The notes under the pieces are model-generated. The model saw only the letters and a program-made list of their open reading frames with translations, was not told the origin of the DNA and did no database searches. Of a stretch of 64,000 bases of DNA, positions 1,613 through 55,891 are shown piece after piece; position 1 is the first letter of the stretch; every line of letters begins with the position of its first letter. The stretch spans positions 25,310 through 89,309 of the forward strand of contig JAMCPX010000047.1 in NCBI GenBank assembly GCA_023382265.1, given 5' to 3'. This DNA is from Deltaproteobacteria bacterium (GTDB lineage Bacteria > JAMCPX01). A program made the translations under genes and the position numbers.

Positions 1613-3532
1613 ATGCACATGCCGGTGTTATTAAGCGTAATCAAGGGAGAAGTTGAAGCTATGTATAAACAAAAACACTTTATAAGCCTGCTCGAAGCTA
1701 TTACCCAAAAATCGGACATGTCGGATGATATAAAACAAAAATCGGTTGTACAGCTTGAAGCCTATCTCAAAAACGCCCCCTTTCTTGCAAAGTTTATTTT
1801 CACATTGCTGTTATACGCAGTTGAATACCTTCCCATGTTCACCAGACTTACGAGGCTTTCAAAAATGGATATCGATAGAAGGGCAGAGTACATAAGCGGA
1901 TTTAATGGGAGAATAGGCGGCATTGTTTTGATGGTACTCAAGCTATTCGTGACACTTTCATACTACTCTGTAGATGATATTGAACGCAAGCTCGGGTTTA
2001 CAAGGCATTGCGGGGATATCAAAGGAAGGGTCAAAAAACCCGTGTTTGTTGACGGGTCTAAAGCGGATAAAGATGTAAGCATAAACGCCGATGTATGCAT
2101 TATAGGCTCAGGAGCTGGCGGAGCTTCCGCTGCTTATGCAGCTGCAAGAGCCGGCATGAAAACCGTTATTCTTGAGGAGGGGCGGTACCTGACGGGTGAG
2201 GATTTCACTCAAAAGCCTGTAGATGCATTTGGAACCGTATACAGGGATCATGGGTTCATAACATCCTTCGGCACACCGCCGATAATCATCCCGCTTGGTA
2301 AGTCGGTAGGAGGTACGACGACCATAAACTCGGGGACCTGCTACAGGATGCCTTCATCTGTTATAAAAAATTGGCATGACCAGTACGGCATAGACTGGCT
2401 GACGGACGATGAATACAATAGGCTGGCTTCATCTGTAGAAAAAGAAATACATGTCGAGCCTGTACCTGATCGCATATCCGGCAAGAACAGCGGGCTTTTC
2501 AAGAAAGGCACGGAGGCACTTGGGCTTGCAGGCGCACCCATACCGAGAAATGCCTATGAATGCGATGGCTGCGCATTCTGTGCATTTGGATGCCCAAGAG
2601 ATGCGAAATACGGAACAATGCTGAATTTCATCCCTGATGCGATAAAGCACGGGGCGGCATTGTATTCGAATACAAAAGCTGTAAAACTTATAATAAATAA
2701 CAACAGGATTGAAGGCGTAAAAGGAGCTTTTCTCGACAGGTATGGGAAATCAACATCCAAACAGATTACGGTAAATGCAAAGCACGCTATTGTGTCTGCA
2801 GGTGCAATATATACGCCTATTTTCCTGAGGAAAAACGGCTTAAAACATCCCCTCATAGGCAAAAACCTTCATATCCATCCGGCAGCGCGTGTGTCAGCGG
2901 TGTTTAATGAGCGGGTTGATGGATGGGTCGGTGTGCCTCAGGGCTATAATATACATCACTATGTTGATGAAGGCATCTTCATACAGGGACAATTTGTACC
3001 TCCATCCATATTGTCCCAGTCTATTCCTTATATTGGCAAGCGTCATTCTGAACTGATGGACAAATATGCCTATATGGGCTCATTCGGTGCACTCATATCC
3101 GATACAGGCTCGGGCAGTGTTTCACCGGGCCTGAGCAGTCCAATGATTTTTTATACTCTTTCAAAAGAGGATCACGTAAAAATGGTAAAATCCATTGCAA
3201 TAACGGCAAAGGTCTGGTTTGCGGCAGGTGCAGCAGAAGTCCATACACAGATCGCAACCATGCCTGTAATACATAACGAAAAAGAGGCCGACGATCTACT
3301 TAACAAATTACCGCCTGCATGGGCGCTTGAACTCATGGCTTTTCATCCGATGGGTACTGTGATGATGGGTGGTAATGATAATACTGCAGTAGTAAAACCT
3401 GATGGGGAAACTTATGAGGTAAAAGGTCTTTATGCTGCAGACGCTTCTTTGTTCCCGACGTCAACAAAACTAAACCCGCAGATTACAATCATGAGTTTCG
3501 GTCTGAAGATAGGGGATGGGATTGGCAGGTAG
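1613..3532 (+). CDS. GMC family FAD-dependent oxidoreductase with ~160-aa N-terminal extension
   Basis: FAD-binding 'CIIGSGAGGASAAYAAARAG' only at aa ~165; GMC C-terminal region with 'GLYAADASLFPTS'; alternative start ATG 1661 (MYKQKHF) has a GGGAGA RBS. Confidence 0.8.
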   Translation: MHMPVLLSVIKGEVEAMYKQKHFISLLEAITQKSDMSDDIKQKSVVQLEAYLKNAPFLAKFIFTLLLYAVEYLPMFTRLTRLSKMDIDRRAEYISGFNGRIGGIVLMVLKLFVTLSYYSVDDIERKLGFTRHCGDIKGRVKKPVFVDGSKADKDVSINADVCIIGSGAGGASAAYAAARAGMKTVILEEGRYLTGEDFTQKPVDAFGTVYRDHGFITSFGTPPIIIPLGKSVGGTTTINSGTCYRMPSSVIKNWHDQYGIDWLTDDEYNRLASSVEKEIHVEPVPDRISGKNSGLFKKGTEALGLAGAPIPRNAYECDGCAFCAFGCPRDAKYGTMLNFIPDAIKHGAALYSNTKAVKLIINNNRIEGVKGAFLDRYGKSTSKQITVNAKHAIVSAGAIYTPIFLRKNGLKHPLIGKNLHIHPAARVSAVFNERVDGWVGVPQGYNIHHYVDEGIFIQGQFVPPSILSQSIPYIGKRHSELMDKYAYMGSFGALISDTGSGSVSPGLSSPMIFYTLSKEDHVKMVKSIAITAKVWFAAGAAEVHTQIATMPVIHNEKEADDLLNKLPPAWALELMAFHPMGTVMMGGNDNTAVVKPDGETYEVKGLYAADASLFPTSTKLNPQITIMSFGLKIGDGIGR

Positions 3533-3611
3533 GATAAATTCAGTTTTAGGGGGTTTGCAATTCTAAATGTTTGTGCTAATCTTTCTATAATGAATGATCG
3601 CAAATCAAATT

Positions 3612-3626
3612 TTCTAACGGGGTTTA
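3612..3626 (+). promoter_or_regulatory. TTCTAACGGGGTTTA motif copy 10 nt upstream of the radical SAM ATG
   Basis: 15-nt string identical to 8561-8575; related copies at 8471-8487, 8880-8891 and 8929-8943. Confidence 0.4.
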
Positions 3627-3635
3627 CATATACAC

Positions 3636-5039
3636 ATGCGTGAAGGGATAAAGCCAAACAATGTACTCTGCATCTACCCTTATGTAAAAGAGGTGCCTGT
3701 TTACGAGTTCTTTCCGCCCATAGGTCTTGAGTATGTCGCAACAGCTGTCAGCGATATGGTCGGGAGTATAAAAATTGTTGATTTCAGGTACGTGAAGGAC
3801 CCTATGAGTAATTTTACCCCTTCTATAGATACCGCTCTGGTGAGTGTGAACTGGAATTACACCTACGATGAAGTATGTGCCGTGATACGGCAGATTCCTC
3901 CGCAGGTCAGGGTCATCGTGGGAGGCCGGCAGGCCACGGATTTTGTCGAGGACCTTTTTAACAGGTGTCCGAACATATCCGTAATCGTAAGGGGGGAGGG
4001 TGAACTGACTCTGAGGGACCTGTTCAGCGGCAGGCCTATGGAAGAGGTGAAGGGCATATCGTATATGGACAACGGCAAAGTCATTCATAATGAATCCAGA
4101 CCGTTGTTTTCTCTTCAAGAAGTTAAGAGACCGGACCGGAGCTTAAGGACAACCAACTACCGTGCCACCATCAAGGGGATTGACCTGGGATTTGGATTCG
4201 ATGCCATTATGAGTTCGCGGGGATGCCCTTACAGCTGTAAATTTTGCAGCTTCAAGCTTAACCCACTGGGACAGCTGCGGAAATGGGAGGCGAGAAGTCC
4301 GGAATCTACGGTCGAAGAAATAGAGGAGATAGATGCCGATTTTGTTGCATTTGTAGACGACAATTTTACCGCTGACATGAAGAGAGTCGAGAAGATCTGC
4401 GACCTCATCATTGCAAAGGGAATAAAGAAGATGTTCCTGTGCAACGTACGGATCGATATCGCACGAAAACCTGCTTTGGTTGAGAAGATGAAGAAGGCGG
4501 GGTTTAAAATCCTTATGGTTGGACTGGAGTCTGCCCAGGACAAGTCACTGGACGCACTGCAGAAAGGCTTTAAAACAGCCAGGGTGAAAGAGGTATTCCA
4601 TGTCCTGGCAGGTTCGGGTATGCTCATAAACGGGTATTTTATTATCGGGATTATCGGTGAGGCTGAAGAGGAGATGCTGGAGATCTCAACGTATGCCCGT
4701 GATATAGGTATTGACTTCATTTCTTTAAGCAGGCTAAGGTGGGAGAAATTTTCCGCATTGGAGGATATTGTTAAAGTGAACAAGGGGTATTACATAGGTC
4801 AGGACAATGGCATATACTCGGACAAGTACGGACGGAAAGAACTGACGGCGATCCTGAAAAAGATCGATAGAAATTTTTACACCCCGTCTCAGATCAAGCA
4901 GATTGTAATAAAGGCATTCAGACTCCGCATTCTGACACCGCGCCGTCTGCTCAGACTGATGTACTATGTACCATACATTCTTATGAGGACCCATGCAAGC
5001 ACCAAAAGAATGAAGAAGGTTATGAAGCAGAACTCCTGA
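3636..5039 (+). CDS. B12-binding domain radical SAM protein
   Basis: N-terminal cobalamin-binding-like domain (PPIGLEYVATAV), CxxxCxxC-type cluster 'CPYSCKFCSF' with radical SAM core. Confidence 0.8.
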   Translation: MREGIKPNNVLCIYPYVKEVPVYEFFPPIGLEYVATAVSDMVGSIKIVDFRYVKDPMSNFTPSIDTALVSVNWNYTYDEVCAVIRQIPPQVRVIVGGRQATDFVEDLFNRCPNISVIVRGEGELTLRDLFSGRPMEEVKGISYMDNGKVIHNESRPLFSLQEVKRPDRSLRTTNYRATIKGIDLGFGFDAIMSSRGCPYSCKFCSFKLNPLGQLRKWEARSPESTVEEIEEIDADFVAFVDDNFTADMKRVEKICDLIIAKGIKKMFLCNVRIDIARKPALVEKMKKAGFKILMVGLESAQDKSLDALQKGFKTARVKEVFHVLAGSGMLINGYFIIGIIGEAEEEMLEISTYARDIGIDFISLSRLRWEKFSALEDIVKVNKGYYIGQDNGIYSDKYGRKELTAILKKIDRNFYTPSQIKQIVIKAFRLRILTPRRLLRLMYYVPYILMRTHASTKRMKKVMKQNS

Positions 5040-23941: not shown

Positions 23942-24916
23942 TCATTTTATAGCTTTCTTTTTAAGAAGCTTGAAAAGATGCCTCCATCCAAAAATAAGAG
24001 GGAATCTGTGATCCCATTTCGTAAGGTTAAGTTTCTCCCCTGTTGTCCGCTCGATCTTTGTCTCAAGATAATCAACATAATTCTTGAACGTGTACACGCC
24101 TTTTGGCCATCTGTAAACGGCACGTCTTCTGCCTCTGCTTATAAATCCTTTTACATATTGCTTGGAAAAATATGCATTTATAACTTCATATTTCCCTCCC
24201 GATTTTTTTACGGTATTATTGTTTATCTCCTGTTCAAGAAGCATCGTATAAATGGTTTTATAAAAATCAGGTTCGCTTTCATAAATGCTTAGAATTTTAT
24301 CGGGTGTTTCTGTTCGTATCTCCGCTCTATAGCTAAGACCAAGAAGGGTTAAAATGAATTCATCCATTGTGAATTCTTTGCCGTTAATATCGGATAAGGC
24401 GAGCATGACATTAAAGTGCAGTGCATTATAAATGTTTTCAATCAAATCAAGCAATACCTGCTCATTTTTAACATACATAATGCCGATCCTCTTCGTGAGC
24501 CTGCCTGCTATATAAAGGTCATTTGTTTTTTTTGCGTCGGCTGCATCCCTGAATCCCTTCATATCGATAACGCAGTATTTTGACGGCATGATCACGGCGT
24601 TTTTTTCTATTTTTAAGAAATAAGAATTTGGTGGAACGATATTATTTAATGCAGCATGAACACGGGATTTATAAAACCGCATATAATTGTTAACTATAAT
24701 ATAAAAATCAGGATAGCTGGAGTTTGTTGCCATTCTTGAGCTCAAGGTAGAACCGTAAGTAAAAATTATTTCAATGCCCTTAAATGTATTGAGAAAATAG
24801 TTGAGAAACAGGTCGGTAGTTTCTGACCGATAAGGGTAGTATTTCTTTGTTACAAGTTCTTTTATCTGTTCAGTATAATGGGTGTTCGTCGGCATTGGCT
24901 GATATGATGCTTTCAT
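23942..24916 (-). CDS. Tam41/Mmp37-like protein (putative phosphatidate cytidylyltransferase, non-CdsA type)
   Basis: 324 aa; blocks 'FTYGS', 'DFYIIV', 'LYIAGRLTKRIGIMYVKN', 'GLSYRAEIRTETPDKI' align with the yeast Tam41 blocks 'FGYGSGVF', 'DIILGV', 'FYLAGRLQKPVKILKN', 'ALSYAGDIRYKLGGENPDKV' (recalled from memory). Confidence 0.5.
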   Translation of the reverse strand: MKASYQPMPTNTHYTEQIKELVTKKYYPYRSETTDLFLNYFLNTFKGIEIIFTYGSTLSSRMATNSSYPDFYIIVNNYMRFYKSRVHAALNNIVPPNSYFLKIEKNAVIMPSKYCVIDMKGFRDAADAKKTNDLYIAGRLTKRIGIMYVKNEQVLLDLIENIYNALHFNVMLALSDINGKEFTMDEFILTLLGLSYRAEIRTETPDKILSIYESEPDFYKTIYTMLLEQEINNNTVKKSGGKYEVINAYFSKQYVKGFISRGRRRAVYRWPKGVYTFKNYVDYLETKIERTTGEKLNLTKWDHRFPLIFGWRHLFKLLKKKAIK

Positions 24917-25949
24917 GGTTTATTATATGATCATTGTTTATCCAGTGTTTAAACTTTAAACCCATTATGTTTGTCCTTATTGATTCGGGAACAATAAAGA
25001 AATTCAATGCAGGCCCGTTCTCAATGATAACGTCGGTTTCATTATCATCTGTAAGTTCCCCGTCTATCCCATACCCTGATTCTGACTGTATCGTTACTCT
25101 GTGAGCGAGATCATTAAAAGATTTCGGATGCAGTAATTTTCCCGTAGAGAGTGTCCTGACATTTGCTATGATTTCGAACGGATCCATGGATACGGCAAGA
25201 AAATAGAAATCATATATGGCTTTCCTTTCGGGCTTATAAAATGGTTTAAACCAGAGAATAAGCTTTTTTAATACAGACGCAACGGCGATTAAGATCTTAC
25301 CGTCCGCATACGGTTTATTATCTATAATAATATGCACTTTTACCTTTTCAAAATAGCTCTTTGATTTTTTATTTCCGATTATATATCCTCCAATGGCTGT
25401 TGTTACAACCGTTGTAGCTGTTTGAAAACTTGGCTGTCCTGTTGCATAATAAAGCTTCTGCAGTTTAAAAGCGATTCCGTTTGAAAATGTAAATCCATAC
25501 CTTTCACCATGTTTTTTATCTGTAATTTTTAAAAGCATCATGGGTACTGTTGAGAGCTTTTCATCACCATTACGGTATCTCCGTATGTGCTGCATAATTA
25601 GCTTTACAGTCTCTACCGGATTTTTTCTTATCCCAAGGTTATTGGCAACCATGTTCATTGTTCCGCCCCTCAAAGGCAGAATGATGGGCAGTTTATTCGA
25701 AGGCAAGGATTTTATCATTTGTGTAAGTGTAACTTGCAGAGTGCCGTCTCCACCGTTGATCATCACAAGGTTTATGCCTTCCCTTTTTATAAAATCTAAA
25801 GCGGTCTCGATATCATCTGTGGAGTAGGTATCAAAGGTAAAAGTATTATCAAGTATGTAAGGAATAAACTTATCCCTGTTATAACCGTTTATCCTGTTCT
25901 TACGAGCGTTCATATTGTTTATTATGCATGAGCGAATTTCCATATTCAC
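24870..25949 (-). CDS. DAGK-catalytic-domain lipid kinase (YegS/BmrU-like)
   Basis: 'LVMINGGDGTLQ' and 'LPLRGGTMNMVANNLG' diacylglycerol-kinase catalytic motifs; 47-bp overlap with the Tam41-like gene. Confidence 0.75.
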   Translation of the reverse strand: MNMEIRSCIINNMNARKNRINGYNRDKFIPYILDNTFTFDTYSTDDIETALDFIKREGINLVMINGGDGTLQVTLTQMIKSLPSNKLPIILPLRGGTMNMVANNLGIRKNPVETVKLIMQHIRRYRNGDEKLSTVPMMLLKITDKKHGERYGFTFSNGIAFKLQKLYYATGQPSFQTATTVVTTAIGGYIIGNKKSKSYFEKVKVHIIIDNKPYADGKILIAVASVLKKLILWFKPFYKPERKAIYDFYFLAVSMDPFEIIANVRTLSTGKLLHPKSFNDLAHRVTIQSESGYGIDGELTDDNETDVIIENGPALNFFIVPESIRTNIMGLKFKHWINNDHIINHESIISANADEHPLY

Positions 25950-26073: not shown

Positions 26074-26670
26074 TCATTTAGTGTCAACGCCGTTATTCCG
26101 TTTAATCCTGTAATCAATGATGGAACAGATTATATGTCCGATTGTTATATGTGCTTCTTGAATTCTTGGCGTATCCGTATGATCAATAATAACAGGAAAA
26201 TCAACCATTGACTTTGCTTTGCCTCCGCCGCTGCCGAGCAAACCGATCGTTATCATACCTTTTTCTTTTGCCGTTTTAAATGCGCTAAGAATGTTTTTAG
26301 AATTTCCCGAGGTTGTAATGCCGAGTGCCAGATCATTCTTTTTACCGAGCGCATAAAGCTGTTTTGAAAATATGTCATCGAATGAATAATCATTTGCTAT
26401 GCTCGTTAAAATGGATGTGTCCGTGGCAAGCGATATTGCAGGCAGGGGTTGTCTTTCTATCTTGAATCTGTTCACAAATTCTGCTGCGATGTGCTGGGCA
26501 TCAGCAGCAGAGCCGCCATTACCGAAAATGAACAGGACATGACCTTCCGTGATTGCATTGTAAATTATGTCCGCTACCTCTTTTATAAGTTCTGCATGCG
26601 TGTTTATTAAGCCAAGCTTTAATTCGGCGCTTGATCTCAATTCTGATTTTATAATTCCGATTTCATCCAT
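26074..26670 (-). CDS. gmhA: D-sedoheptulose-7-phosphate isomerase (SIS domain)
   Basis: 'GNGGSAADAQHIAAEFVNRF', 'TTSGNSKNIL' closely match GmhA. Confidence 0.85.
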   Translation of the reverse strand: MDEIGIIKSELRSSAELKLGLINTHAELIKEVADIIYNAITEGHVLFIFGNGGSAADAQHIAAEFVNRFKIERQPLPAISLATDTSILTSIANDYSFDDIFSKQLYALGKKNDLALGITTSGNSKNILSAFKTAKEKGMITIGLLGSGGGKAKSMVDFPVIIDHTDTPRIQEAHITIGHIICSIIDYRIKRNNGVDTK

Positions 26671-26672
26671 AC

Positions 26673-28148
26673 CTATTTACCCGTGTAATCATAACCCCTG
26701 TATAGAGTAAACGATCGTCTGATATCACCCGTTTTATTATCAACTATGTTGATTACACCAAGCCTTTTTACCTTTTTAAAAAGTCCTTGCGTAACATCAT
26801 TAAGCTGACCTGTTCCACGATCCACTATGATCATGTTTTTACCTTCTAAAGTTTTTTGATTCTGAAAATAGAGATATGCGTTTTTAGCACTATTGTTTAC
26901 CTTTAAAAAATAAACCTCAGGCTGCCCTGGCAGGTAAAACGCGAGTTCTGCCGTGATGCCATAATCGGTAGCACCGACAAGTTCTCCTGATTTAATATAT
27001 TTTTTTGTCTGCATTGCAAGTTGATTCCATCCGGCAAGTCTATTTGAAAAGTGGCGGGCAGGCGGGATATCAAATGTTTTATATACCCATTCCGGATAGT
27101 GTTCAAAATATGTTATCAGCAATGTAGTTATAAACATAAGTGATAAGAATGCTATTATTAGTTTTCTGTAGCCTTTTTTATATTGGTCAACGAGTAAGCT
27201 GACGCCGCCGATAAAAGGGGCGATATATCCTGCCGCGGGCCAGTTAACCTCTGCCCTGCCTTTGAAAGCGAGGAATGTTATAAATAGAAACGTCGGCAAG
27301 GATGTAGCAAGTATTACATTAAATCTCTCATCGTGTCTGAATAACCCTTTGCGTATTGAGTATAGCATTGTATAAAAAACAAGTAAGAATACAAAAGGTG
27401 TAAGCACCCCCATGTCTCCAAAAAAAAATGTTGAGAACACAAACCATGGATTATAATGCGAAGGCATGAGGCTAAGTGCCCTTTTAAACATGCCGAAACC
27501 GTGCTCAAAATTCCAGATAAAAACAGGGCTTGCCGTTATAATTGTCAATACTGCACCCAAATAAGGTTCTTTCTTAAAGAGCCAGTGCCTATTCCTGTTT
27601 GAAATAAGCACAAACAACACAACTTCAAGGCTAAAAAAGAAGAACATGTGATGGCTTAATATCCCGAGTCCAAGCACTATACCTATTAAATACCAGAGCC
27701 ACGGCTTTTGATTTTTATTCAATTCAAACAGCAAGAATATGAGTATGGTCATAAACAGGATCTGAGGTACGTAATAAGTCGCTATAAATGCATTGGAAGC
27801 AACAAAGGGATTAAATATAAAAAGCGCCGTTGCTGTCAATGCTGTTGTAGGCGAGAAAAATCTGTTCCCGATCTCGTAGAAGATGATTGCCGTAACTGTT
27901 GAAAATATGTTTGCACCCATTCTGAGTGCGAATTCGGATGAACCAAAAAAATGGATCATAACCATATTGATCCACGAGATCATCGGGCCCATATCAAGGT
28001 AACTAAGGGCCGGATGCCTTGCCCAATCCCAGTAATATGCTTCATCGGGTGAAAGCAATAGATGGGCTGTTTTTATATAATAGGTGTTCAGAACAAATGC
28101 GAGCAGAATAATGCTGTACCCGATTATACGCTTTTTCATAAGGGACAC
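26673..28148 (-). CDS. Glycosyltransferase family 39 / ArnT-like polyprenyl-phosphate-sugar-dependent transferase
   Basis: ~12 TM helices; 'DEAYYWDWARHP' motif of PMT/ArnT-type GT-C enzymes; 2-bp gap to gmhA. Confidence 0.8.
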   Translation of the reverse strand: MSLMKKRIIGYSIILLAFVLNTYYIKTAHLLLSPDEAYYWDWARHPALSYLDMGPMISWINMVMIHFFGSSEFALRMGANIFSTVTAIIFYEIGNRFFSPTTALTATALFIFNPFVASNAFIATYYVPQILFMTILIFLLFELNKNQKPWLWYLIGIVLGLGILSHHMFFFFSLEVVLFVLISNRNRHWLFKKEPYLGAVLTIITASPVFIWNFEHGFGMFKRALSLMPSHYNPWFVFSTFFFGDMGVLTPFVFLLVFYTMLYSIRKGLFRHDERFNVILATSLPTFLFITFLAFKGRAEVNWPAAGYIAPFIGGVSLLVDQYKKGYRKLIIAFLSLMFITTLLITYFEHYPEWVYKTFDIPPARHFSNRLAGWNQLAMQTKKYIKSGELVGATDYGITAELAFYLPGQPEVYFLKVNNSAKNAYLYFQNQKTLEGKNMIIVDRGTGQLNDVTQGLFKKVKRLGVINIVDNKTGDIRRSFTLYRGYDYTGK

Positions 28149-28687
28149 CCGTAAAAGAATTTAAAATGATATTTCAGATAAAGTATGATTGTTACAAAAA
28201 TAAAACCAAGCCATGCATTGTATTCTTCATGTTTTATTACAAGTTTAATGTCAAAATCTTTTGTTAGCCTTACGGGTTTTAATTTTGGGAAAAATATAGG
28301 CACCTTTGTTTTATAATCAAGGAATTCAGCACCGAATAGCTCTATGAGCATTTTCTCTTCGCCTTTAATCACATTATAATAAACAAAATAAAAGCCCGCG
28401 AGGTAGATTATGATAAATATAGCGCTGCTACCCATAATAGATACGCCAAGCCCTATAAAAAAGCTGCCGAGATATAATGGGTTTCTTGTGTAAGAGTATG
28501 GCCCATCCACAGATAACTGCTTATTCTTTTTTATATGGCCCGATGCCCATAGTCTTATCATTAAACCAATAATACCTATAGGCAGACCAACGGTCATTCC
28601 CATTATATCCGGACTGGCTGCAAAAATAAACAATATTGCAAACACAAATCCTATCTGTATACGGTATTTGGATAAAAACTTGTTCAT
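28136..28687 (-). CDS. ICMT/PEMT-family membrane methyltransferase
   Basis: 183 aa, 4-5 TM; 'RNPLYLGSFFIGLG' and C-terminal 'EE..L...FG..Y..Y' isoprenylcysteine carboxyl methyltransferase-family motif; 13-bp overlap with GT39 gene. Confidence 0.65.
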   Translation of the reverse strand: MNKFLSKYRIQIGFVFAILFIFAASPDIMGMTVGLPIGIIGLMIRLWASGHIKKNKQLSVDGPYSYTRNPLYLGSFFIGLGVSIMGSSAIFIIIYLAGFYFVYYNVIKGEEKMLIELFGAEFLDYKTKVPIFFPKLKPVRLTKDFDIKLVIKHEEYNAWLGFIFVTIILYLKYHFKFFYGCPL

Positions 28688-28822
28688 ATTTACTTCTATA
28701 GTATTTTTTTTTATTAACTGTCCAGTATTCTCTTTAAATCATTTGTTGTTTAGATTTTTTTGAGTTAACGATTTACCGTTTTGCTTGTTTTACTTTAAAA
28801 TAGCTATTAATTATTTATTCCA

Positions 28823-48071: not shown

Positions 48072-48452
48072 TTATTGATTATACCACCATGTGGATTGTG
48101 GAATATCAGCCTCTATCGCAAAAACATTCCCTTCCCCATCAGCATAGTTCTGAACAACAGGTAACAGTGACCTTAATGGAACTGGATTGTTAAATAATGC
48201 GTAAAGATCTTCACCAATGGCATCTGGTACTTGTTGTATAAGTGAGGCGCTCACCGTTGAAACAAAAAAGTTAAGGTCAGACGGCTTAATTATACGCGGC
48301 TCCTCATTATTAAGGTTACCAATTATCTTACCAAGAAAATCATCCAATGCACCTGCAAATGCTCTATTCATGCTTGAGCCTATCACTATTGTACCATCAG
48401 TTTGAGGGAAACCAATCATCATTATAAACGGACTTATATAATTATCAATCAT
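48072..48452 (-). CDS. Hypothetical protein (126 aa), translationally coupled to upstream gene
   Basis: ATGATTGA start/stop overlap with 48445..49131; no signal peptide; no recognisable domain. Confidence 0.45.
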   Translation of the reverse strand: MIDNYISPFIMMIGFPQTDGTIVIGSSMNRAFAGALDDFLGKIIGNLNNEEPRIIKPSDLNFFVSTVSASLIQQVPDAIGEDLYALFNNPVPLRSLLPVVQNYADGEGNVFAIEADIPQSTWWYNQ

Positions 48453-49131
48453 GCAATAACGGTTCTACACAATTAACTGTCTGCGTTGAATCTGTAATAT
48501 AGCACCCAAAATGGATTGTATCAGATGTTACCGGCTCTCCAACTATGAAGCCATTATGATTATTATCAAAATACGCAATAACCTTGTTAATATTATTGTC
48601 CTCTGCAATGAGGGCATTCCCCATCCCCTGCATGGACTGAAGCATACCTGTTATATCGGTCTTAACATCGGTAAAGTATTGAGCACCGGATGCGTCAGGA
48701 ATTGTGCTGAATGAGAGAAAGTCAGGACAGTTGTAAACAATGTTTCCCATTGCTCTGAATACCGCAAGAGGGGCATACTGAAGCTGGGTACTATTCAAGC
48801 CTCCTATCCAGGATAAAAGCGGAGAGAGTACGCAATTGGTATCGTAATTATATGATGAAAGTAGATCAATAATTGCCTTTAATACATAAGCGGTTGAGCT
48901 TATAGCCTTTGCCTCCGGCAAACCCCATTGCCTGCCGAGAACAAGGTTGAGAGATATTTGCGGGACAGAAGGCATTAAAAGCTTTAATACACTCATATCG
49001 GGCTGAATATGGAGGGGAAGGGTATCAAGGGTAAAGCCACAGTTGTGTTGCTCAATGAATGTGGTGTGTGTAAGAATCAGCGATATATCAGAGGTGATAC
49101 CGGTAAACTGTACTGCTACGTTGTCAGCCAT
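48445..49131 (-). CDS. Hypothetical protein (228 aa)
   Basis: No signal peptide or known motif; part of the minus-strand operon 52384->48072. Confidence 0.45.
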   Translation of the reverse strand: MADNVAVQFTGITSDISLILTHTTFIEQHNCGFTLDTLPLHIQPDMSVLKLLMPSVPQISLNLVLGRQWGLPEAKAISSTAYVLKAIIDLLSSYNYDTNCVLSPLLSWIGGLNSTQLQYAPLAVFRAMGNIVYNCPDFLSFSTIPDASGAQYFTDVKTDITGMLQSMQGMGNALIAEDNNINKVIAYFDNNHNGFIVGEPVTSDTIHFGCYITDSTQTVNCVEPLLHD

Positions 49132-49140
49132 AACACCTCT

Positions 49141-49389
49141 TTACAGATTATTAATAAAAGTGGTTGCCTGATTGTTCATAATATCCTGGCTTGCGGCAAG
49201 CACCATGCCCCAGTGTGCATCGCAACTGTTCGGATTAGCTTTTAGTGCTTGAGAGAATTGTACCAAAGCATCCTGCGGCGAGCTATTCAAAATCGCATTT
49301 TTACCGGTATTGATAAGAGGCGAGATATCGACTGATTTATGGGCATTGCCGCACTCTGCGAACAACACCATGATACCGGAAACAATCAT
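49141..49389 (-). CDS. Small TPR-like hypothetical protein
   Basis: Start set at internal Met (MIVSGIM) to avoid overlap with upstream gene; 'ALVQFSQALKANPNSCDAHWGMVLAASQ' looks like one TPR hairpin. Confidence 0.3.
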   Translation of the reverse strand: MIVSGIMVLFAECGNAHKSVDISPLINTGKNAILNSSPQDALVQFSQALKANPNSCDAHWGMVLAASQDIMNNQATTFINNL

Positions 49390-49420
49390 TTCTCTTGTCT
49401 TTATCTTTATAAAACCTCCT

Positions 49421-50605
49421 CTATGGGTATATCTTGGTGTATTCCACTGTACCGGTTGGTGACAACGACATATTATAGCCTTCTGTTGTAAATGTATATC
49501 CACCAAGGGTATAAAGATAGCCATTATACTGCACAAACTGCACACCTGCCATAGTAGCAAAAGGAGCACCTAAATTTGTTGACATACTTGGTATCCATTT
49601 ATTTAATGAGTCGTCTGTATTTATCTGAATCCTTTGAACACCATCGAAAAATGAAAGTGTGGAAGAGGAGAACTCATACATGCCATATAAAACATACAGC
49701 CAGTTATTATATGTTGCTGCCCCAATTATGGAAACAGGATTTATTGTTAATGGGGCATTTGTGTCGGTAATCCAGTCTCCTACAGAGCCATCAACTCCAA
49801 TTGCTGCATAAGATGGGGATGATAGTGGAATCAACGAAGAATAGAATGAGCCTGATGATGAAGTTGAAGGGAATAGAGCTGCCAACCCTCCACCCAATAG
49901 ATAAATCCTGTTACCTATTGCAATACTTGTTACGCCATAAGGTATTGTTATTGTAGGGGATACGGCCATCCATGGGGTAAATGGGATGGATGTATCAGAG
50001 ATCCATGAGCCTAAAGAACCATCCTGATTTATCATGCAGTGAGATGTCTTTAATAAAGCCTGCGAAGACTGTGCGGATAAACATGATATCGTATACGCAT
50101 TATTAAAATTACATAGAGGGGCAATTTCATACATCCATTTATCTGAAATAAGTAGTATAGTTGATTGTGTACAAGGTGAAATAGGCAGTGTTGAAACTGT
50201 TTGCCATACACCAAGACTGTGATCCGACTGGATATCTGTCTTTAGAATATCACCATTGGTAAAGTTTACCGCATATAGATAATTATTGTATTGTAACAGG
50301 GCTTGATAGCTACCCGTCGGTAATAATGAGGTATCGCTTATCCATTGTCCAATATCGCCATCTGATAATATTGGCGCCCTTACTGTTGTATTTTCTGAAA
50401 AACTTACTGCATACATCCAGCCATTATATTCTATTGCTCTAAAAGGAATACCTGTATCGTTTATTGGCACAGAGGATGATGCAAACTGCCACTGTCCAAG
50501 ATGACCTGGACCCGTATCAGATGTAACCTTTACACCAGATGTATATGATGTACAGCTACTGAGGAGCAGGAGTAAACATGTTAATAATTGTAAGTAAGTC
50601 TTCAT
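49421..50605 (-). CDS. Kelch-like six-bladed beta-propeller lipoprotein
   Basis: Lipobox 'LLLSSC'; six repeats of 'NxY(L/M)Y(A/V/L)..GG...D.S(L/V)G.W(I/Q)(S/T)DT'. Confidence 0.55.
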   Translation of the reverse strand: MKTYLQLLTCLLLLLSSCTSYTSGVKVTSDTGPGHLGQWQFASSSVPINDTGIPFRAIEYNGWMYAVSFSENTTVRAPILSDGDIGQWISDTSLLPTGSYQALLQYNNYLYAVNFTNGDILKTDIQSDHSLGVWQTVSTLPISPCTQSTILLISDKWMYEIAPLCNFNNAYTISCLSAQSSQALLKTSHCMINQDGSLGSWISDTSIPFTPWMAVSPTITIPYGVTSIAIGNRIYLLGGGLAALFPSTSSSGSFYSSLIPLSSPSYAAIGVDGSVGDWITDTNAPLTINPVSIIGAATYNNWLYVLYGMYEFSSSTLSFFDGVQRIQINTDDSLNKWIPSMSTNLGAPFATMAGVQFVQYNGYLYTLGGYTFTTEGYNMSLSPTGTVEYTKIYP

Positions 50606-50635
50606 AAGATTGTCCTCCTTATAATAATTATATAC

Positions 50636-52384
50636 TTATTTCACCCAAAGTTGAAGCCTGTCATATATACCAATAGCTTTTCCATGAGCATTAAACGGCA
50701 TTGGCGACCCATGGATAAGCGTTTTTATTCCAAGCCCAAGCGGAAGATTTGCATATTCCATAAGTAATGATTTTACATAATCCAGCACCTCTCCTAATTG
50801 GGGACTTGCATACCTATGGATAAAATCAATGAAATAAATAATCGTGTTGACTTCATCTCTGGTAAACACTTTGTTTGCCAGTTGCGGTGGAAGTTTTCCG
50901 TTATTTGTAAGGAGCGCTTTTACTATAGGGAGGTATTGTGTTATTAGCTCCCTTGCCTGTCCTATAAGTTGTGGATGTTCTAACATTATTTTTGTGATCT
51001 CAGGGCTGTATTCGTAATAAAGTGCTACAAGTAATTCCCCTTCATATCCTTTAGATAAAACACGATCCCTGAAGCTTCTTATTAATGGAATATTGGTTTC
51101 TAAAGAAGTTCCCCTTAGAGCTGCGGTCACAAAGCAGCAACTGTTTGAATAAGGATTAGTTCCTGTTACATTTATGGTAGTAGAGGTAAACATAGTAAAA
51201 TTCATTTCCGGACATGACTGATCACCAGGTAAATCATCATAGAGTAGTGCAACCAATAGTGGATATGAAACAGTGCATTCACTAACTGGAGCTGTTATTG
51301 GCAATGAAATACTTGTTTGATCAGAACCGCTTGGATATGGTGTTAAGGAATAGTTCCAAGAGCTATAATTGTTATAGATAGACCCATAATAGTTGTTATA
51401 TGGATATATTAGAGGGAAGACATCCGGATTAGAATAATTACCGAAATTATTAAGCCCTGCTACATGAAAAAGATAGTCAGGATTGTAAAAAGATTCTAAT
51501 CGTGGTGAGACATTTTCTATTGTAATATTAAGGTTTGTAGATTGCCCTGCTTGCAGGTTTGTTGGTTGAAGTGTAAACTGTGCGGTTGAATAAAGGGGCG
51601 CATAAGTTTCATTTGAAACAAGAAAGGGATCGTTAAAGATGTATAACAATACTTCCTTAAATGGAACTTCAAAGTAACCCACAGAAGTAGATATGCCTAA
51701 TAATCTATTTCCATTTAATAAATCTTGTACATTACTTTTTATATCATCATCTATTATTGGACAAGGACCCGCGTCATCAATAGTAGGGTTACCGGTAACT
51801 GAACAATGACTTCTGTAAACATTTACTGTTATATGTGTAAAATTTAAACCAAGTGTTGCAACCGAAAGATTTGAAGGTGGTTGAATAACAGTAGTAGTCA
51901 TATATACATCTGCTACAACACTCCCTACATAGTTAACTGATAGAGTTTCATATTGGCAATTGAGCGGATCTACATAGCGTATGTGCCCTGTTGTTTGAGT
52001 AATATTTAAGGTTAGGTGGAGGTGAATACTCTGGATAGGTGATACCCACGTCGTTATATAATTCATAGTGATAGAGGGAATATTACCATAGACCGTTATA
52101 CCATTGGAATTACCATTACACGCAGTTGATCCTGATAGTAGATTACATTCACATAGGTATGAGAAGCCAAATGATCCAGTAGTAGTAGGGAAGATAGCAT
52201 TGCTGTGTATATTTTGTAGTATCACTGAGCTTGCTCTATTTAGGACCACTTGTGGTAACTGACACTGGGAAGCAGGGTAATCAGCTTTTACATTATTGGT
52301 AATAATAAAACTTATACCCAACAAATTTATTATTAAAAACCTCTTTAATATTTTCTTAACATCCTCCTTTGTAAATTTTATCAC
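50636..52384 (-). CDS. Large secreted Asn/Tyr/Thr-rich protein with conserved C-terminal 'CCFVTAALRG...LIRSFRD' domain
   Basis: Signal peptide; ~400-aa low-complexity beta-rich region; C-terminal ~170 aa resembles the 'CFxxTAAxGS...LRxFRD' cassette seen at C-termini of some secreted proteins (recalled from memory). Confidence 0.5.
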   Translation of the reverse strand: MIKFTKEDVKKILKRFLIINLLGISFIITNNVKADYPASQCQLPQVVLNRASSVILQNIHSNAIFPTTTGSFGFSYLCECNLLSGSTACNGNSNGITVYGNIPSITMNYITTWVSPIQSIHLHLTLNITQTTGHIRYVDPLNCQYETLSVNYVGSVVADVYMTTTVIQPPSNLSVATLGLNFTHITVNVYRSHCSVTGNPTIDDAGPCPIIDDDIKSNVQDLLNGNRLLGISTSVGYFEVPFKEVLLYIFNDPFLVSNETYAPLYSTAQFTLQPTNLQAGQSTNLNITIENVSPRLESFYNPDYLFHVAGLNNFGNYSNPDVFPLIYPYNNYYGSIYNNYSSWNYSLTPYPSGSDQTSISLPITAPVSECTVSYPLLVALLYDDLPGDQSCPEMNFTMFTSTTINVTGTNPYSNSCCFVTAALRGTSLETNIPLIRSFRDRVLSKGYEGELLVALYYEYSPEITKIMLEHPQLIGQARELITQYLPIVKALLTNNGKLPPQLANKVFTRDEVNTIIYFIDFIHRYASPQLGEVLDYVKSLLMEYANLPLGLGIKTLIHGSPMPFNAHGKAIGIYDRLQLWVK

Positions 52385-53269: not shown

Positions 53270-54106
53270 GTGGATTATGTGGTAAGAGGCTTTGGGCTGA
53301 GTAAACGAAGGGCGTTACAACTGGTACATTTATGCTGGGCCAGTTATATATACCGTAGGAAAGACAAGGGGGACGATGCGTTACGCAAGCGTATGCATGA
53401 AATTGCGCAACATCGACGGAGGTTGGGTTCGCCCCGCATCTATACCCTGTTAAGAAGAGAGGGATGGAAAATGAATCATAAGAAGGTAGATCGGCTGTAT
53501 AAGGAAGAGAAGCTGTCATTGAGGCTGCGGAAACGTAAACGGCTGCCGGCACGGCAGCGGATATCCCTTACGGTTCCAAACGCACCGAATAAGTGCTGGT
53601 CCATGGATTTTGTATCAGACAGCATTGCACAGGGGCGAAGATTCCGTGTTTTAAACATCGTTGATGATTACACGAAGGAAAGTCCTGCTATGGAGGTAGA
53701 TACGTCTCTTGGAGGTGTTCGAGTAGCGCAGGTTTTAGAGAGGTTAAAGCAAACCAGAGGATTGTCTGATAGAATCAGAACTGACAATGGTCCTGAATTT
53801 ATCAGCCGTGCACTGGATGAATGGGCATATCAGAACGGGGTGAAGCTGGACTTCATAGAACCGGGCAAGCCTATGGAGAATGCTTTTATAGAAAGCTTTA
53901 ATGGGCGGTTCCGGGATGAATGCCTGAACGAGAACTGGTTTATGACGCTTCAGGAAGCCAGGGAGATCATTGAGCATTGGCGGATTGATTACAATCAGAA
54001 CCGGCCACACGGCTCCTTAGAAGGACTTACACCGGATGAATTTGCAAGAAAGCACGAAATAATGGTAAGGAATAGTCAGGAAACTCTAATTCAAGGTGCT
54101 CTATAA
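53270..54106 (+). CDS. IS3 transposase OrfB (DDE integrase core, rve)
   Basis: 'WSMDFVSD', 'IRTDNGPEF', 'E' of the DDE triad, 'RPH' C-terminal motif; expressed as an OrfAB transframe fusion. Confidence 0.9.
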
Positions 54107-54319: not shown

Positions 54320-55891
54320 TTATTCATAGTTTGTGTAATCAAGCCAATTAAAGATGTTATCTTTTGATTCTGTCTCATTAAGGAATTCCGGGTCAATGCT
54401 GTTATTGGTTATTTGTTCATAGAGGTACGTGAACCTTGATATGTGAGAGATAAATCTTTTTTTTGCATAATTCACATTCGTGCCTGAGTTCATGATAAAA
54501 GGCCAATCACTACTCTGGACGAGTAACAGCTCTCTTAATGCCTGATTGATTGCCCTGTGTTTTACCGGAGATGCCTTTTTGATTCTTATGAGTGTCTTCA
54601 TACGGTCCTGTGCCATATGAAGATGTTTGTATATCCAATCATTCGTTCCGTTAAGCCATACCTCATGATAACCTTTATCCCCCCAGCTTGATTGAGCAGG
54701 CTGAGCGATCTGGTTTTCAGTATACTCTTTTAAATAAATGGGCGGAGAGATTGATTTAACGCGATCATTTATTGCGTGAAGTTTTCTAAAAACATGCTCG
54801 AGAAACTCGGGGCCTTCAAACCACCAGTGCCCAAACAGCTCCGCATCATAAGTGGATACTATTATAGGCTTTCTGTCCATAATGCTTGATAGATACTCAA
54901 TATGTTTCTCCCTGTTGAAAACAAAATTACCCGCATGTATCTCTGTTTTTTTAGATGCCCATTCCGGATTGTACGGCTCTTTTTGATCTGTAGGACCCGT
55001 GATCCTGTAATACTTTATTCCAAGGTTTGATCTCGAGCCGTCACTGTGCAGGTACGGCTTGATATAATCAAAATCCAGATCATATCCAACATCCCTATAA
55101 AATTCCCTGTAGTCATTATCCCCCGGATAGCCCTCTTTTGCACTCCATACCTGTTTTGCCGACTGATGATCCCTTCCAAAGAAGCATACACCCGTTTCCG
55201 CGCATATGGGTGCATAAACGCCGTACACGGGCTGAATAGACGCATTGAGCAATCCATGTGCGTCAAGGAATGTATACCCGATACCGCTTTTGGCTAAAAG
55301 GCTGTCAACCCCCTCTATATAAGCGTTCTCCGGCAGCCAGAATCCAGACGGCTTTAAACCAAACCAATGCTTGTACGTATCGACGCCAATACGAATCTGA
55401 TTATCCTTCCACGGATCGTCAATAATCAGCGGCAGGTATGCGTGTGTTGCACATGAAGCTAGTACATCAACAGCTCCTGCATCAATAAACTCCTTGAATC
55501 CTGAGACTATGTCTCCTCTATACCTTTTCTCAAATACATCCATGTAATGTTTGAATCTATCATAATACATCCTCGCGAGTTGATTAAAGTCTGGATCCTT
55601 TTGGGTACGTATAATCTCTTTTTCGCTTAGCTCTATAAGTTTTGAAAGATGATGCTTGTATCTTTTCATAAGCAGTTCATCTTTCAGCATCTCCATTAAT
55701 GTAGGGGTAAGACTAATAGTTATGTGAAATTTAATGTTATCGTTAAGCATTCGATCAAATGCATCAAGCAGGGGAAGGTATGTTTCTGTTATTGCTTCAT
55801 AAAGCCAATCTTCTTCAAGAAAATCATTATACTCAGGATGTCTTACATAAGGCAGATGTGAATGAAGCACAATGGCTAAATAACCATTCAT
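54320..55891 (-). CDS. Glycoside hydrolase family 57 protein (probable alpha-1,4-glucan branching enzyme)
   Basis: 'MNGYLAIVLHSHLPYVRHPE' GH57 N-terminal signature; 523 aa. Confidence 0.85.
   Translation of the reverse strand: MNGYLAIVLHSHLPYVRHPEYNDFLEEDWLYEAITETYLPLLDAFDRMLNDNIKFHITISLTPTLMEMLKDELLMKRYKHHLSKLIELSEKEIIRTQKDPDFNQLARMYYDRFKHYMDVFEKRYRGDIVSGFKEFIDAGAVDVLASCATHAYLPLIIDDPWKDNQIRIGVDTYKHWFGLKPSGFWLPENAYIEGVDSLLAKSGIGYTFLDAHGLLNASIQPVYGVYAPICAETGVCFFGRDHQSAKQVWSAKEGYPGDNDYREFYRDVGYDLDFDYIKPYLHSDGSRSNLGIKYYRITGPTDQKEPYNPEWASKKTEIHAGNFVFNREKHIEYLSSIMDRKPIIVSTYDAELFGHWWFEGPEFLEHVFRKLHAINDRVKSISPPIYLKEYTENQIAQPAQSSWGDKGYHEVWLNGTNDWIYKHLHMAQDRMKTLIRIKKASPVKHRAINQALRELLLVQSSDWPFIMNSGTNVNYAKKRFISHISRFTYLYEQITNNSIDPEFLNETESKDNIFNWLDYTNYE

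Follow-up and report, generated by a model that had tools for sequence, protein, structure and literature searches.

A conserved methyltransferase-glycosyltransferase-GmhA operon from an uncultured diderm lineage with a probable role in lipopolysaccharide tailoring

Three minus-strand genes of a “Deltaproteobacteria bacterium” contig, encoding an ICMT/PEMT-like membrane methyltransferase, an ArnT-like GT-C glycosyltransferase (GT) and the D-sedoheptulose-7-phosphate isomerase GmhA, form a translationally coupled operon. The trio recurs across a single uncultured diderm lineage, whose genomes are labelled “Deltaproteobacteria bacterium” or simply “bacterium.” Judging from sequence and from analogy with known systems, the operon probably (with a likelihood of roughly 60%) tailors lipid A or the inner core of lipopolysaccharide (LPS) in dependence on genes located elsewhere, with putative substrates. 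A lipid A or LPS core modification had been proposed in an earlier note on this DNA, and it is the best-supported reading, as the relatives of both the methyltransferase and the GT are LPS-associated. All positions refer to the window, i.e., the whole stretch of 64,000 nucleotides that was analyzed (Table 1); it contains genes for an OMP beta-barrel, LolA and SurA-like proteins, from which we conclude that the host is a diderm.

Table 1. Features of the operon and its surroundings, with positions in the 64-kb window.
Feature	Position	Strand	Remarks
ICMT/PEMT-like membrane methyltransferase	28136-28687	-	183 aa; first in the operon
GT-C glycosyltransferase, PMT_2 family, ArnT-like	26673-28139	-	488 aa; alternative GTG start at 28148
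GmhA, D-sedoheptulose-7-phosphate isomerase	26074-26670	-	198 aa; third gene
Intergenic region, 135 bp, common to the divergent PBP1A gene	28688-28822		presumed operon promoter region (inferred)
DAGK_cat lipid kinase	24870-25943/25949	-	outside the conserved module
Tam41-like protein (Tam41_Mmp37)	23942-24916	-	outside the conserved module
Classical SDR (adh_short)	22941-23771/23831	-	outside the conserved module

The open reading frames of the trio are present as the earlier note gave them, and its family assignments (ICMT/PEMT, GT-C, GmhA, DAGK, Tam41, and SDR) were upheld by Pfam and NCBIfam profiles. The 2-bp gap between the GT and GmhA genes also stands, while the 13-bp overlap proposed for the methyltransferase and GT genes is most likely only 4 bp long. 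This junction reads ...CCCTTATGAAAAAG, with the ATG at 28139 overlapping the TGA stop codon of the methyltransferase gene as ATGA; the shorter overlap is deduced from this arrangement, from the public gene call for the GT (488 residues, starting at the same ATG), and from the MKK or MKR with which GT orthologues begin. An exact-protein look-up likewise matched the form with the ATG start and gave no match for the GTG start. Upstream of the methyltransferase gene, the 135-bp intergenic region is the sole non-coding DNA. A scan of it for the sigma-70 consensus found nothing on the operon strand and a single weak match on the other strand (28772 to 28801). Sigma-70 matches in the wider region were not enriched over shuffled sequences, and an Rfam scan of the window returned no RNA families.

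Gene order and coupling of the trio are kept in 13 further loci, with the methyltransferase gene in view in 12. In 11 of the 13, the proteins are only 67 to 73% identical to those of the window and the flanking genes are different: PTS/glyoxalase genes lie upstream in the relatives versus PBP1A in the window, and UvrD-like, aroD, or TatC genes lie downstream of the unit. The methyltransferase-GT junction measures −4 bp in 10 of the 12 loci holding both genes and −13 bp in the other two, and the GT-GmhA junction ranges from −13 to +2 bp across the orthologous loci. Wherever the sequence of the 67 to 73% loci continues, the gene after gmhA encodes an NDUFA9-like extended SDR, again overlapping by 4 bp (10 of 11 junctions). 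HldD was considered as the identity of this fourth gene and rejected: no HldD match was obtained, and the best matches were HpnA-like (73 to 95 bits, far below the cut-off) and NDUFA9-like PDB chains. The trio arrangement is more than chance and bears out the tight operon proposed earlier. That ATGA-type coupling is kept over ~30% protein divergence with changing flanks points to selection on the linkage. The same observation weighs against a rather unlikely alternative, namely that these are co-regulated but biochemically unconnected envelope genes: a captured housekeeping gmhA, a GT-C acting on a non-LPS acceptor (a periplasmic or outer-membrane protein by PMT-like O-glycosylation, or another glycan), and an ICMT-like enzyme methylating, e.g., a phospholipid or a protein that is prenylated or lipidated.

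The conserved unit does not include the genes for the lipid kinase (DAGK), Tam41-like protein, and classical SDR, which the earlier note had joined to the trio in one multi-gene block. The DAGK/Tam41 pair is indeed nearby, although probably not at the proposed 124 bp, as the DAGK gene likelier starts at the ATG at 25943, leaving a gap of 130 bp. In a synteny check, DAGK, Tam41, and SDR genes came after gmhA nowhere but in the window and in relatives of 96 to 100% identity (L001, L168, and L169), and none of the 11 loci of 67 to 73% identity had them within 10 kb. Because these genes are limited to the window's own clade, the larger block is not a unit; they are a recent positional neighbor outside the system. 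Per-gene GC and GC3 gave no compositional sign of a foreign origin for them. A terminator scan found no terminator-like site in the gmhA-DAGK gap (124 or 130 bp), and transcriptional read-through from gmhA into the DAGK gene may occur.

We consider it improbable that the trio and the DAGK, Tam41, and SDR genes make up a self-contained pathway for a heptose-containing, methylated, lipid-linked glycoconjugate, with GmhA-derived heptose loaded on a carrier and moved by the GT-C. Such a pathway would agree with the lack of a terminator after gmhA in the window and with the coupling of gmhA, which adjoins the GT gene in this way at all orthologous loci and an SDR/epimerase-family gene at 10 of 11. 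GT-C systems are known to include auxiliary epimerases whose substrates are lipid-linked sugars (PMC11127046). It is contradicted by the absence of the three downstream genes from the more divergent loci and by the gene content of the window. HldE, GmhB, and WaaC are not adjacent, as the earlier note had remarked, and none turned up across the whole window or in the 10 kb around any of the orthologous trios. A search of the window for a GT paralogue, GT2, YdjC, extended SDR, HldE parts, GmhB-like HAD, GT9, and WaaA/LpxK found none of them, and Pfam searches of its remaining open reading frames gave no LPS genes. Heptose kinase, phosphatase, and nucleotidyltransferase genes were found in neither the operon nor the window, and GT2 or flippase genes in neither of these nor the 10 kb on either side of orthologous trios, save for a paralogous operon in L006 and L088 (see below). 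GT-C systems require a polyprenyl-phosphate sugar synthase and a flippase (PMC11127046), and the proposed pathway, lacking both as well as the heptose-activating enzymes, is not self-contained.

Three-component extracytoplasmic glycosylation systems of the GtrA/GtrB/Gtr type combine a polyprenyl-phosphoribose synthase, a MATE flippase, and a GT136 GT-C with auxiliary epimerases (PMC11127046). Like these systems, the window GT-C must take its sugar from a lipid-phosphate donor at the periplasmic face, and an SDR/epimerase-family gene accompanies it in the relatives of the window; unlike them, the operon and the window are missing the donor synthase and the flippase, i.e., two of the three defining components. 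No link was found between heptose and the donor sugar of the GT, and literature searches on lipid-linked donors turned up no polyprenyl-phosphate heptose donor, which also speaks against the self-contained pathway.

The methyltransferase belongs to the ICMT/PEMT superfamily, matching both Pfam models above the gathering score: PEMT (PF04191) with 38.3 bits (1.9e-9; cut-off 25) and ICMT (PF04140) with 28.2 bits (2.6e-6; cut-off 24). The higher PEMT score is in favor of biochemically unconnected genes. The AlphaFold model (pLDDT 90.5) displays an ICMT fold, with ICMT 5v7p as the best PDB fold match (E = 6e-4), followed by ICMT 5vg9 and then by other superfamily members, namely AtTam46 and steroid reductases. 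A conserved C-terminal cofactor-binding region is indicated by profile matches to the ICMT structures 5vg9 and 4a2n (~1e-9 to 1e-8) that span this part of the protein and by the RNPLY...E signature, the motif GPYxYTRNPLYLGS...E110 being invariant in 34 homologues. The best NCBIfam match, LmtA_Leptospira (TIGR04571; LmtA, lipid A Kdo2 1-phosphate O-methyltransferase), reached 54.7 bits versus a cut-off of 325 bits, and the protein ICMT model isopcys_mtase scored 43 bits, barely below that. LmtA was the best NCBIfam match for all 34 homologues tested, and NCBIfam did not separate LmtA from protein ICMT among them. As the LmtA score is far below its cut-off and barely above that of protein ICMT, the methyl acceptor may be a phosphate, a carboxyl, or an amine. 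LmtA of Leptospira interrogans, an ICMT/Ste14-like enzyme, reportedly methylates the 1-phosphate of lipid A (Hinckley et al., 2005, as cited in PMC10248169). The window protein is likewise a small polytopic membrane methyltransferase of the ICMT superfamily, but it has 183 residues versus the 252 positions of the LmtA model and aligned only to positions 89 to 201.

Homologues of the methyltransferase at 34 to 45% identity sit in heptose/inner-core LPS clusters. A GT9 heptosyltransferase gene on the same strand ends less than 600 bp upstream in 50 of the 59 outgroup methyltransferase loci with more than 500 bp of upstream sequence, and a split HldE (PfkB plus CTP_transf) lies within 3.5 kb in 23 of the 28 with more than 3 kb; WaaA, LpxK, LpxL, and GmhB-like HAD genes are also common. 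The same heptosyltransferase-ICMT adjacency occurs independently in an Acidobacteria metagenomic clone (PMC9717686), an incidental case and the sole match of a literature search for ICMT with heptosyltransferase, which found no characterized precedent. In soil bacteria, this subfamily is an almost constant component of ADP-heptose/heptosyltransferase clusters, its few taxonomically named members being Acidobacteria. From the more than 50 outgroup loci beside heptosyltransferase/HldE genes, we place the probable target of the family in the Kdo/heptose/lipid A region, and the association with Kdo2-lipid A/inner-core assembly genes fits the LmtA substrate. That the association with heptose is seen in dozens of clusters without a GT-C is a further argument against a self-contained pathway. 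Counting against the tailoring reading itself, gmhA and GT-C genes were never found in the outgroup methyltransferase loci.

The GT is assigned to GT-C on the basis of a Pfam match to PMT_2 (PF13231; 8e-23), a multi-pass GT-C fold, and two acidic catalytic residues located in the first periplasmic loop; its 488 residues include a small alpha/beta C-terminal domain. Its profile gave no match to PDB sequences at E ≤ 1, and the fold was then compared by structure prediction: ArnT was the top Foldseek match, and the E-values of Pmt proteins were ~1e5-fold or more weaker. On the choice between GT39 and GT83 raised earlier, profile searches gave the PMT_2 match, no match to PF02366 (PMT, GT39), and 20 bits for the NCBIfam ArnT model, far below its 567-bit cut-off. 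By a definition based on PF02366 plus MIR/luminal domains, the GT does not rank as a protein O-mannosyltransferase, and the missing PF02366 match and the weak Pmt similarity argue against unconnected genes with PMT-like O-glycosylation. ArnT, LgmB, and FlmK are GT-C enzymes of the GT83 type that use undecaprenyl-phosphate donors to decorate the phosphates of lipid A with L-Ara4N, GlcN, or GalN. Of these, LgmB and FlmK are the ArnT-type enzymes adding GlcN/GalN (PMC8168481; PMC2233673). The first-loop motifs RYA and YFEKP of ArnT are conserved, with essential Tyr and Lys residues (PMC5377068). At these sites the window GT reads DEAYYW and SYLDMGP; the Tyr is kept, but equivalents of the essential Arg and Lys of ArnT are absent, as RYA and YFEKP are replaced by YYW and YLDMGP. 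The operon also differs from those of ArnT, LgmB, and FlmK in having no donor-synthesis genes and harboring methyltransferase and GmhA genes instead.

The closest paralogue of the GT (37 to 40% identity) is encoded in GT2-YdjC-GT-C operons of the same genomes, and the window GT and the GT-C of these operons are lineage-specific sisters. Nine of the ten trio-bearing MAGs in a genome scan also carry this paralogue in such an operon, and ~4 kb separates the two operons in L006 and L088. MAGs with the trio include the source MAG (proteins MCL4479141-43), GCA_021842245.1, and GCA_027320005.1. The paralogous operon was not found in the 64-kb window, a point against the tailoring reading. The gene content of the GT2-YdjC-GT-C operon matches that of the Bordetella Lgm and Francisella FlmF2/NaxD/FlmK lipid A hexosamine systems, and more distant GT-C homologues (27 to 31%) adjoin GT9, WaaA, and LpxK genes. 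The tie of the nearest GT-C relatives to hexosamine-type operons conflicts with a self-contained heptose pathway, and the independent, repeated LPS association of the relatives of both enzymes conflicts with unconnected genes. It is very improbable that the ICMT/PEMT-like enzyme N- or O-methylates the amino sugar of an undecaprenyl-phosphate hexosamine on the cytoplasmic face and that the GT-C then transfers the methylated hexosamine to LPS. This is favored by PEMT, an amine methyltransferase, as the best Pfam match, by the ATGA overlap of the two genes, and by a PEMT plus PIG-L (deacetylase) fusion encoded 3 to 4 kb from the GT2-YdjC-GT-C operon in three unrelated loci. It is opposed by the more than 50 outgroup loci, which neighbor heptosyltransferase/HldE genes and have neither hexosamine-carrier genes nor a GT-C close by.

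GmhA is predicted to be a typical, catalytically intact phosphoheptose isomerase. It matched SIS_2 in Pfam (1.3e-27) and scored below the equivalog cut-offs of TIGR00441 (192.1 versus 209.45 bits) and PRK13936 (198.5 versus 276 bits), and the comparison with Burkholderia pseudomallei GmhA (2xbl/2x3y) gave an E-value of 3e-51. The metal/active-site ligands of the latter are His, Glu, Gln, and His; H60, E64, Q171, and H179 of the window protein are identical to the residues in all four aligned metal-ligand columns. NCBI names it D-sedoheptulose 7-phosphate isomerase (MCL4479141.1), and it is 55 to 60% identical to thousands of GmhAs. What sets it apart from the GmhAs of B. pseudomallei (2x3y/2xbl) and E. 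coli (2i2w) is the unusual translational coupling to a GT-C. The two outgroup gmhA copies examined (57 to 59% identity) are solitary genes in unrelated contexts, in line with biochemically unconnected genes, but a purely housekeeping role leaves the tight, conserved coupling to the GT and SDR genes unexplained.

If the operon tailors lipid A or the inner core, GmhA would supply D-glycero-D-manno-heptose-7-phosphate to an ADP-heptose pathway that is otherwise encoded elsewhere. The ICMT-like enzyme would methylate a phosphate of Kdo2-lipid A or of the heptosylated core on the cytoplasmic face of the inner membrane in an LmtA-type reaction, a carboxylate being a less likely target. After flipping of the lipid, the GT-C would move a sugar from a polyprenyl-phosphate donor, most plausibly an undecaprenyl-phosphate hexosamine supplied by the paralogous GT2-YdjC-GT-C operon, to lipid A or the inner core; methylation and glycosylation would both lower the negative charge of the outer membrane. 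We infer all of these biochemical steps from gene context and family resemblance. It is tempting, though a long shot, to go further and assume that the GT-C works in the periplasm with an undescribed donor (polyprenyl-phosphate heptose or a heptose-derived sugar remodeled by the NDUFA9-like SDR), whose sugar it attaches to lipid A or the inner core, with the ATGA/2-bp coupling of gmhA and GT genes reflecting a true donor-transferase relationship and the ICMT-like enzymes being a widespread, unrecognized family of LPS methyltransferases.

The charge of the outer membrane, the resistance of the cell to cationic peptides and metals, and its recognition by innate immunity are governed by the decorations of lipid A and the inner core; to our knowledge, the enzymes known to add them come almost all from cultured Proteobacteria. 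The tailoring operon would pair two lipid A/core-modifying enzyme classes, an LmtA-like methyltransferase and an ArnT-like GT-C, in an uncultured lineage. The comparison of loci corrects the idea that the lipid kinase/Tam41 pair acts in the same pathway as the trio, and the methyltransferase subfamily could reveal a common, so far unrecognized methylation of LPS.

The earlier note had described three minus-strand ORFs encoding an ICMT/PEMT-like methyltransferase, a GT-C glycosyltransferase and a GmhA-like isomerase (here, the trio), and all three were recovered. Profile matches upheld its family calls, both for the trio (PEMT, 1.9e-9, and ICMT, 2.6e-6; PMT_2, 8e-23; SIS_2, 1.3e-27, with gmhA TIGR00441 at 192 bits, below its cut-off of 209) and for the genes 3' of gmhA (DAGK_cat, Tam41_Mmp37 and adh_short). 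Identical proteins from a "Deltaproteobacteria bacterium" MAG are named by NCBI as ICMT-family, GT39-family and D-sedoheptulose 7-phosphate isomerase. The 2-bp spacing between GT and GmhA stands, while the ICMT/GT overlap is most likely 4 bp rather than 13, since the ICMT TGA stop and a GT ATG at 28139 form a classic ATGA overlap (...GGGTGTCCCTTATGAAAAAG), the identical public GT is called as 488 aa from that ATG, and GT orthologues begin with MKK or MKR. Likewise, the 124-bp distance from gmhA to DAGK is correct from GTG 25949 and becomes 130 bp from the likelier start, ATG 25943.

Coordinates of the trio genes in the window and of associated genes in relatives and in outgroup ICMT-homologue loci
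Feature	Location	Strand	Remarks
ICMT/PEMT-like	window 28136-28687	-	183 aa
GT-C	window 26673-28148 from first GTG; likelier start ATG 28139	-	488 aa from ATG
SIS/GmhA-like	window 26074-26670	-	198 aa
Extended SDR	L002 12060-12947; L013 12060-12941; equivalent positions in L006-L014 and L088 (relatives)		fourth operon gene in relatives
Kdo transferase-LpxK and acyltransferase-HAD fusions	L085 1-3797; L086 313-4256; L115 2340-6217 (outgroup)		

To examine synteny, GT homologues were collected, GTDB species representatives were scanned with the GT alignment, and tblastn was run with every protein of the block. Trio order was unchanged in all 10 genome-scan loci bearing a 67-73% identical GT orthologue, and likewise in L002 and the metagenome contig L088; only in L007 does the ICMT gene lie beyond the contig end. 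The ICMT-GT junction is -4 bp in 10 of the 12 loci with both genes and -13 bp in the other 2, and the GT-GmhA junction ranges from -13 to +2 bp. Where the sequence continues, 11 loci at 67-73% identity carry an extended SDR of 293-306 aa 3' of gmhA, coupled to it by ATGA in 10 cases; this gene was found nowhere in the 64-kb window. It is most akin to the NDUFA9/39-kDa complex I subunit family, and HldD was rejected as its identity (top NCBIfam, HpnA-like, 73-95 bits versus a 368-bit cut-off). Upstream, relatives have hpf-hprK-rapZ-PTS-glyoxalase and the window a divergent PBP1A gene; downstream, relatives have a UvrD-like helicase, aroD or TatC. The tight coupling to which the earlier note drew attention is thus kept despite differing flanks, and the conserved unit is ICMT-GT-GmhA, joined in most relatives by the NDUFA9-like SDR.

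The larger block proposed previously, the trio with the DAGK-like/Tam41-like pair and SDR, is not a unit, because DAGK, Tam41 and the classical SDR are absent within 10 kb of all 11 trio loci at 67-73% identity. Their layout with TatC is confined to a 96-100% clade: the window, its Logan twin and the 96% relative GCA_021842245.1. Co-transcription with the trio is possible in the window's species, given that a terminator scan found no terminator-like site in the gmhA-DAGK gap and the base composition of these genes is not unusual. The DAGK_cat and Tam41-like genes (23942-25949, -) overlap by 47 bp (24870-24916), followed by the classical SDR; this slot, just before TatC, is that of the extended SDR (plus aroD) in relatives. 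The proposal of a self-contained heptose-glycolipid pathway is weakened. DAGK and Tam41 are not conserved with the trio, and genes for heptose activation and donor loading are all absent; as reported, no HldE, GmhB or WaaC adjoins the trio, and the 64-kb window yielded no other LPS or heptose gene and no GT2/YdjC operon. Moreover, the GT-C systems known so far depend on both a synthase and a flippase (PMC11127046).

The window GmhA matches Burkholderia pseudomallei GmhA at E 3e-51. Its residues H60, E64, Q171 and H179 are identical at the four metal-ligand columns of that enzyme. Identity is 71-78% within the trio lineage, and thousands of ordinary GmhAs show a lower 55-60%; the two outgroup gmhA genes examined are solitary and in unrelated contexts. 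By sequence, the window protein appears to be a normal GmhA captured into the trio operon. That the trio uses a heptose donor is very unlikely, an idea kept alive by the unusually tight and conserved gmhA-GT-SDR coupling.

The strongest result concerns the gene neighborhood of the ICMT-like family. The structure model of the window protein (METHYLTRANSFERASE; pLDDT 90.5) matches eukaryotic ICMT, the profile matches ICMT structures at about 1e-9 to 1e-8, and the cofactor-region motif RNPLY...E is invariant. Among NCBIfam models, the Leptospira lipid A 1-phosphate methyltransferase LmtA scores highest, at 54.7 bits, far below the 325-bit cut-off and only slightly above the protein-ICMT model, as in all 34 homologues tested. 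The closest outgroup homologues (43-45%) sit within LPS inner-core clusters, in the order WaaA-LpxK fusion, LpxL-HAD fusion, PfkB and CTP_transf (split HldE), ICMT-like, GT2, two GT9, GT4 genes and a Kdo/WaaP-type kinase; a third adjoins GT9. A metagenome scan with the ICMT family alignment added 79 outgroup loci to the 3 examined first. A same-strand GT9 heptosyltransferase ends <600 bp upstream of ICMT in 50 of the 59 loci with >500 bp upstream; most of the other 9 have HldE parts upstream, and 3 also have GT9 downstream. Split HldE lies within 3.5 kb in 23/28 loci with >3 kb upstream, and GT-C and gmhA are absent from all outgroup loci counted. Independently, a functional-metagenomics study shows a heptosyltransferase next to ICMT in an acidobacterial clone; its authors did not connect the pair with LPS (PMC9717686). 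Heptose/inner-core clusters thus regularly include this subfamily, and its position beside gmhA in the window continues the pattern.

The outgroup clusters hold two unusual fusions that tie lipid A steps to heptose steps: Kdo transferase (Glycos_transf_N)-LpxK (~800 aa), and Lip_A_acyltrans, a lipid A secondary acyltransferase, with a HAD/GmhB-like phosphatase (~510 aa). Trio-lineage ICMT proteins share a C-terminal extension ending -C-P-L (window 28136-28165 and orthologues), absent from all outgroup homologues. Its codons occupy the stretch immediately 5' of the overlapping GT start, so the extension may reflect a ribosome-binding-site constraint, not protein function.

For the GT, gene context is more informative than sequence or structure. 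A 23-sequence profile matched no PDB chain at E<=1. The AlphaFold model has a GT-C fold (pLDDT 77, pTM 0.77), and Foldseek placed Cupriavidus metallidurans ArnT first (E 6e-8, TM 0.60-0.62), with Pmt4 at 6e-3 and Pmt1/2 at 6e-2 or weaker. It is unlikely that the trio is a set of co-regulated but unconnected genes, PMT-like protein glycosylation included. The first periplasmic loop has an invariant D32/E33 pair. A bona fide ArnT is ruled out, the ArnT motifs RYA and YFEKP (PMC5377068) being replaced by YYW and YLDMGP. The nearest homologues outside the orthologue group (37-40%) come from Omnitrophota, Ratteibacteria, Nitrospirota, Fidelibacterota, Desulfobacterales and other MAGs, where they directly follow a GT2 of the DPM1/ArnC type and a deacetylase of the YdjC family. 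This paralogous operon matches in gene content Bordetella Lgm and Francisella FlmF2/NaxD/FlmK, NaxD being a YdjC-type deacetylase. Both systems place GlcN or GalN on lipid A phosphates (LgmB, PMC8168481; FlmK/FlmF2, PMC2233673). The paralogous operon also occurs in 9/10 scanned trio-bearing MAGs, on the same or another contig, ~4 kb from the trio in L006 and L088. Remoter homologues (27-31%) adjoin GT9, WaaA, LpxK and GmhB-like genes. From these contexts, the window GT is a duplicate, particular to its lineage, of a GT-C associated with LPS.

In Ratteibacteria-type and other MAGs (L005 14751-16703; L024 and L034 at ~15-16 kb), the GT2-YdjC-GT-C operon is followed after 3-4 kb by the gene for a 650-aa PEMT and PIG-L (deacetylase) fusion; an ICMT/PEMT-type methyltransferase is thereby linked, independently and for a second time, to this GT-C pathway. 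Such fusions, with the PEMT score of the ICMT-like protein, suggest methylation of a lipid-linked amino sugar, which nevertheless seems a long shot.

The window also encodes an OMP beta-barrel protein, LolA and a SurA-like protein, so the host is a diderm. An Rfam scan gave zero matches. Three consecutive ORFs (228, 394 and 582 aa; 48445-52384, -) lack any Pfam match at E<=1e-4 and adjoin an IS-type rve integrase (53270-54106, +). A DUF4912 and GH57 branching-enzyme pair (54320-56544, -) recurs in L087 (7519-10496), next to an ICMT homologue of the outgroup, probably by coincidence. At 1613-5039 (+), a 639-aa GMC oxidoreductase with a ~150-aa N-terminal extension precedes a B12-binding radical SAM protein (467 aa).

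The trio proteins are individually of known kinds. Still uncharacterized are their combination in one operon, the duplicated GT-C, and the ICMT subfamily linked to heptose clusters. The conservation, family membership and genomic associations of the trio are direct observations, and their most economical reading, to which we assign a probability of about 0.6 and for which we infer all substrates, is an operon for LPS lipid A/inner-core tailoring. Heptose-7-P from GmhA would enter an ADP-heptose pathway whose genes lie elsewhere. On the cytoplasmic side, the ICMT-like enzyme would methylate a phosphate of lipid A or the core, a reaction for which LmtA is, to our knowledge, the only precedent established by experiment; methylation of a carboxylate is less likely. 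The GT-C would then add a sugar at the periplasmic face, with the undecaprenyl-phosphate hexosamine produced by the paralogous operon as a plausible donor.
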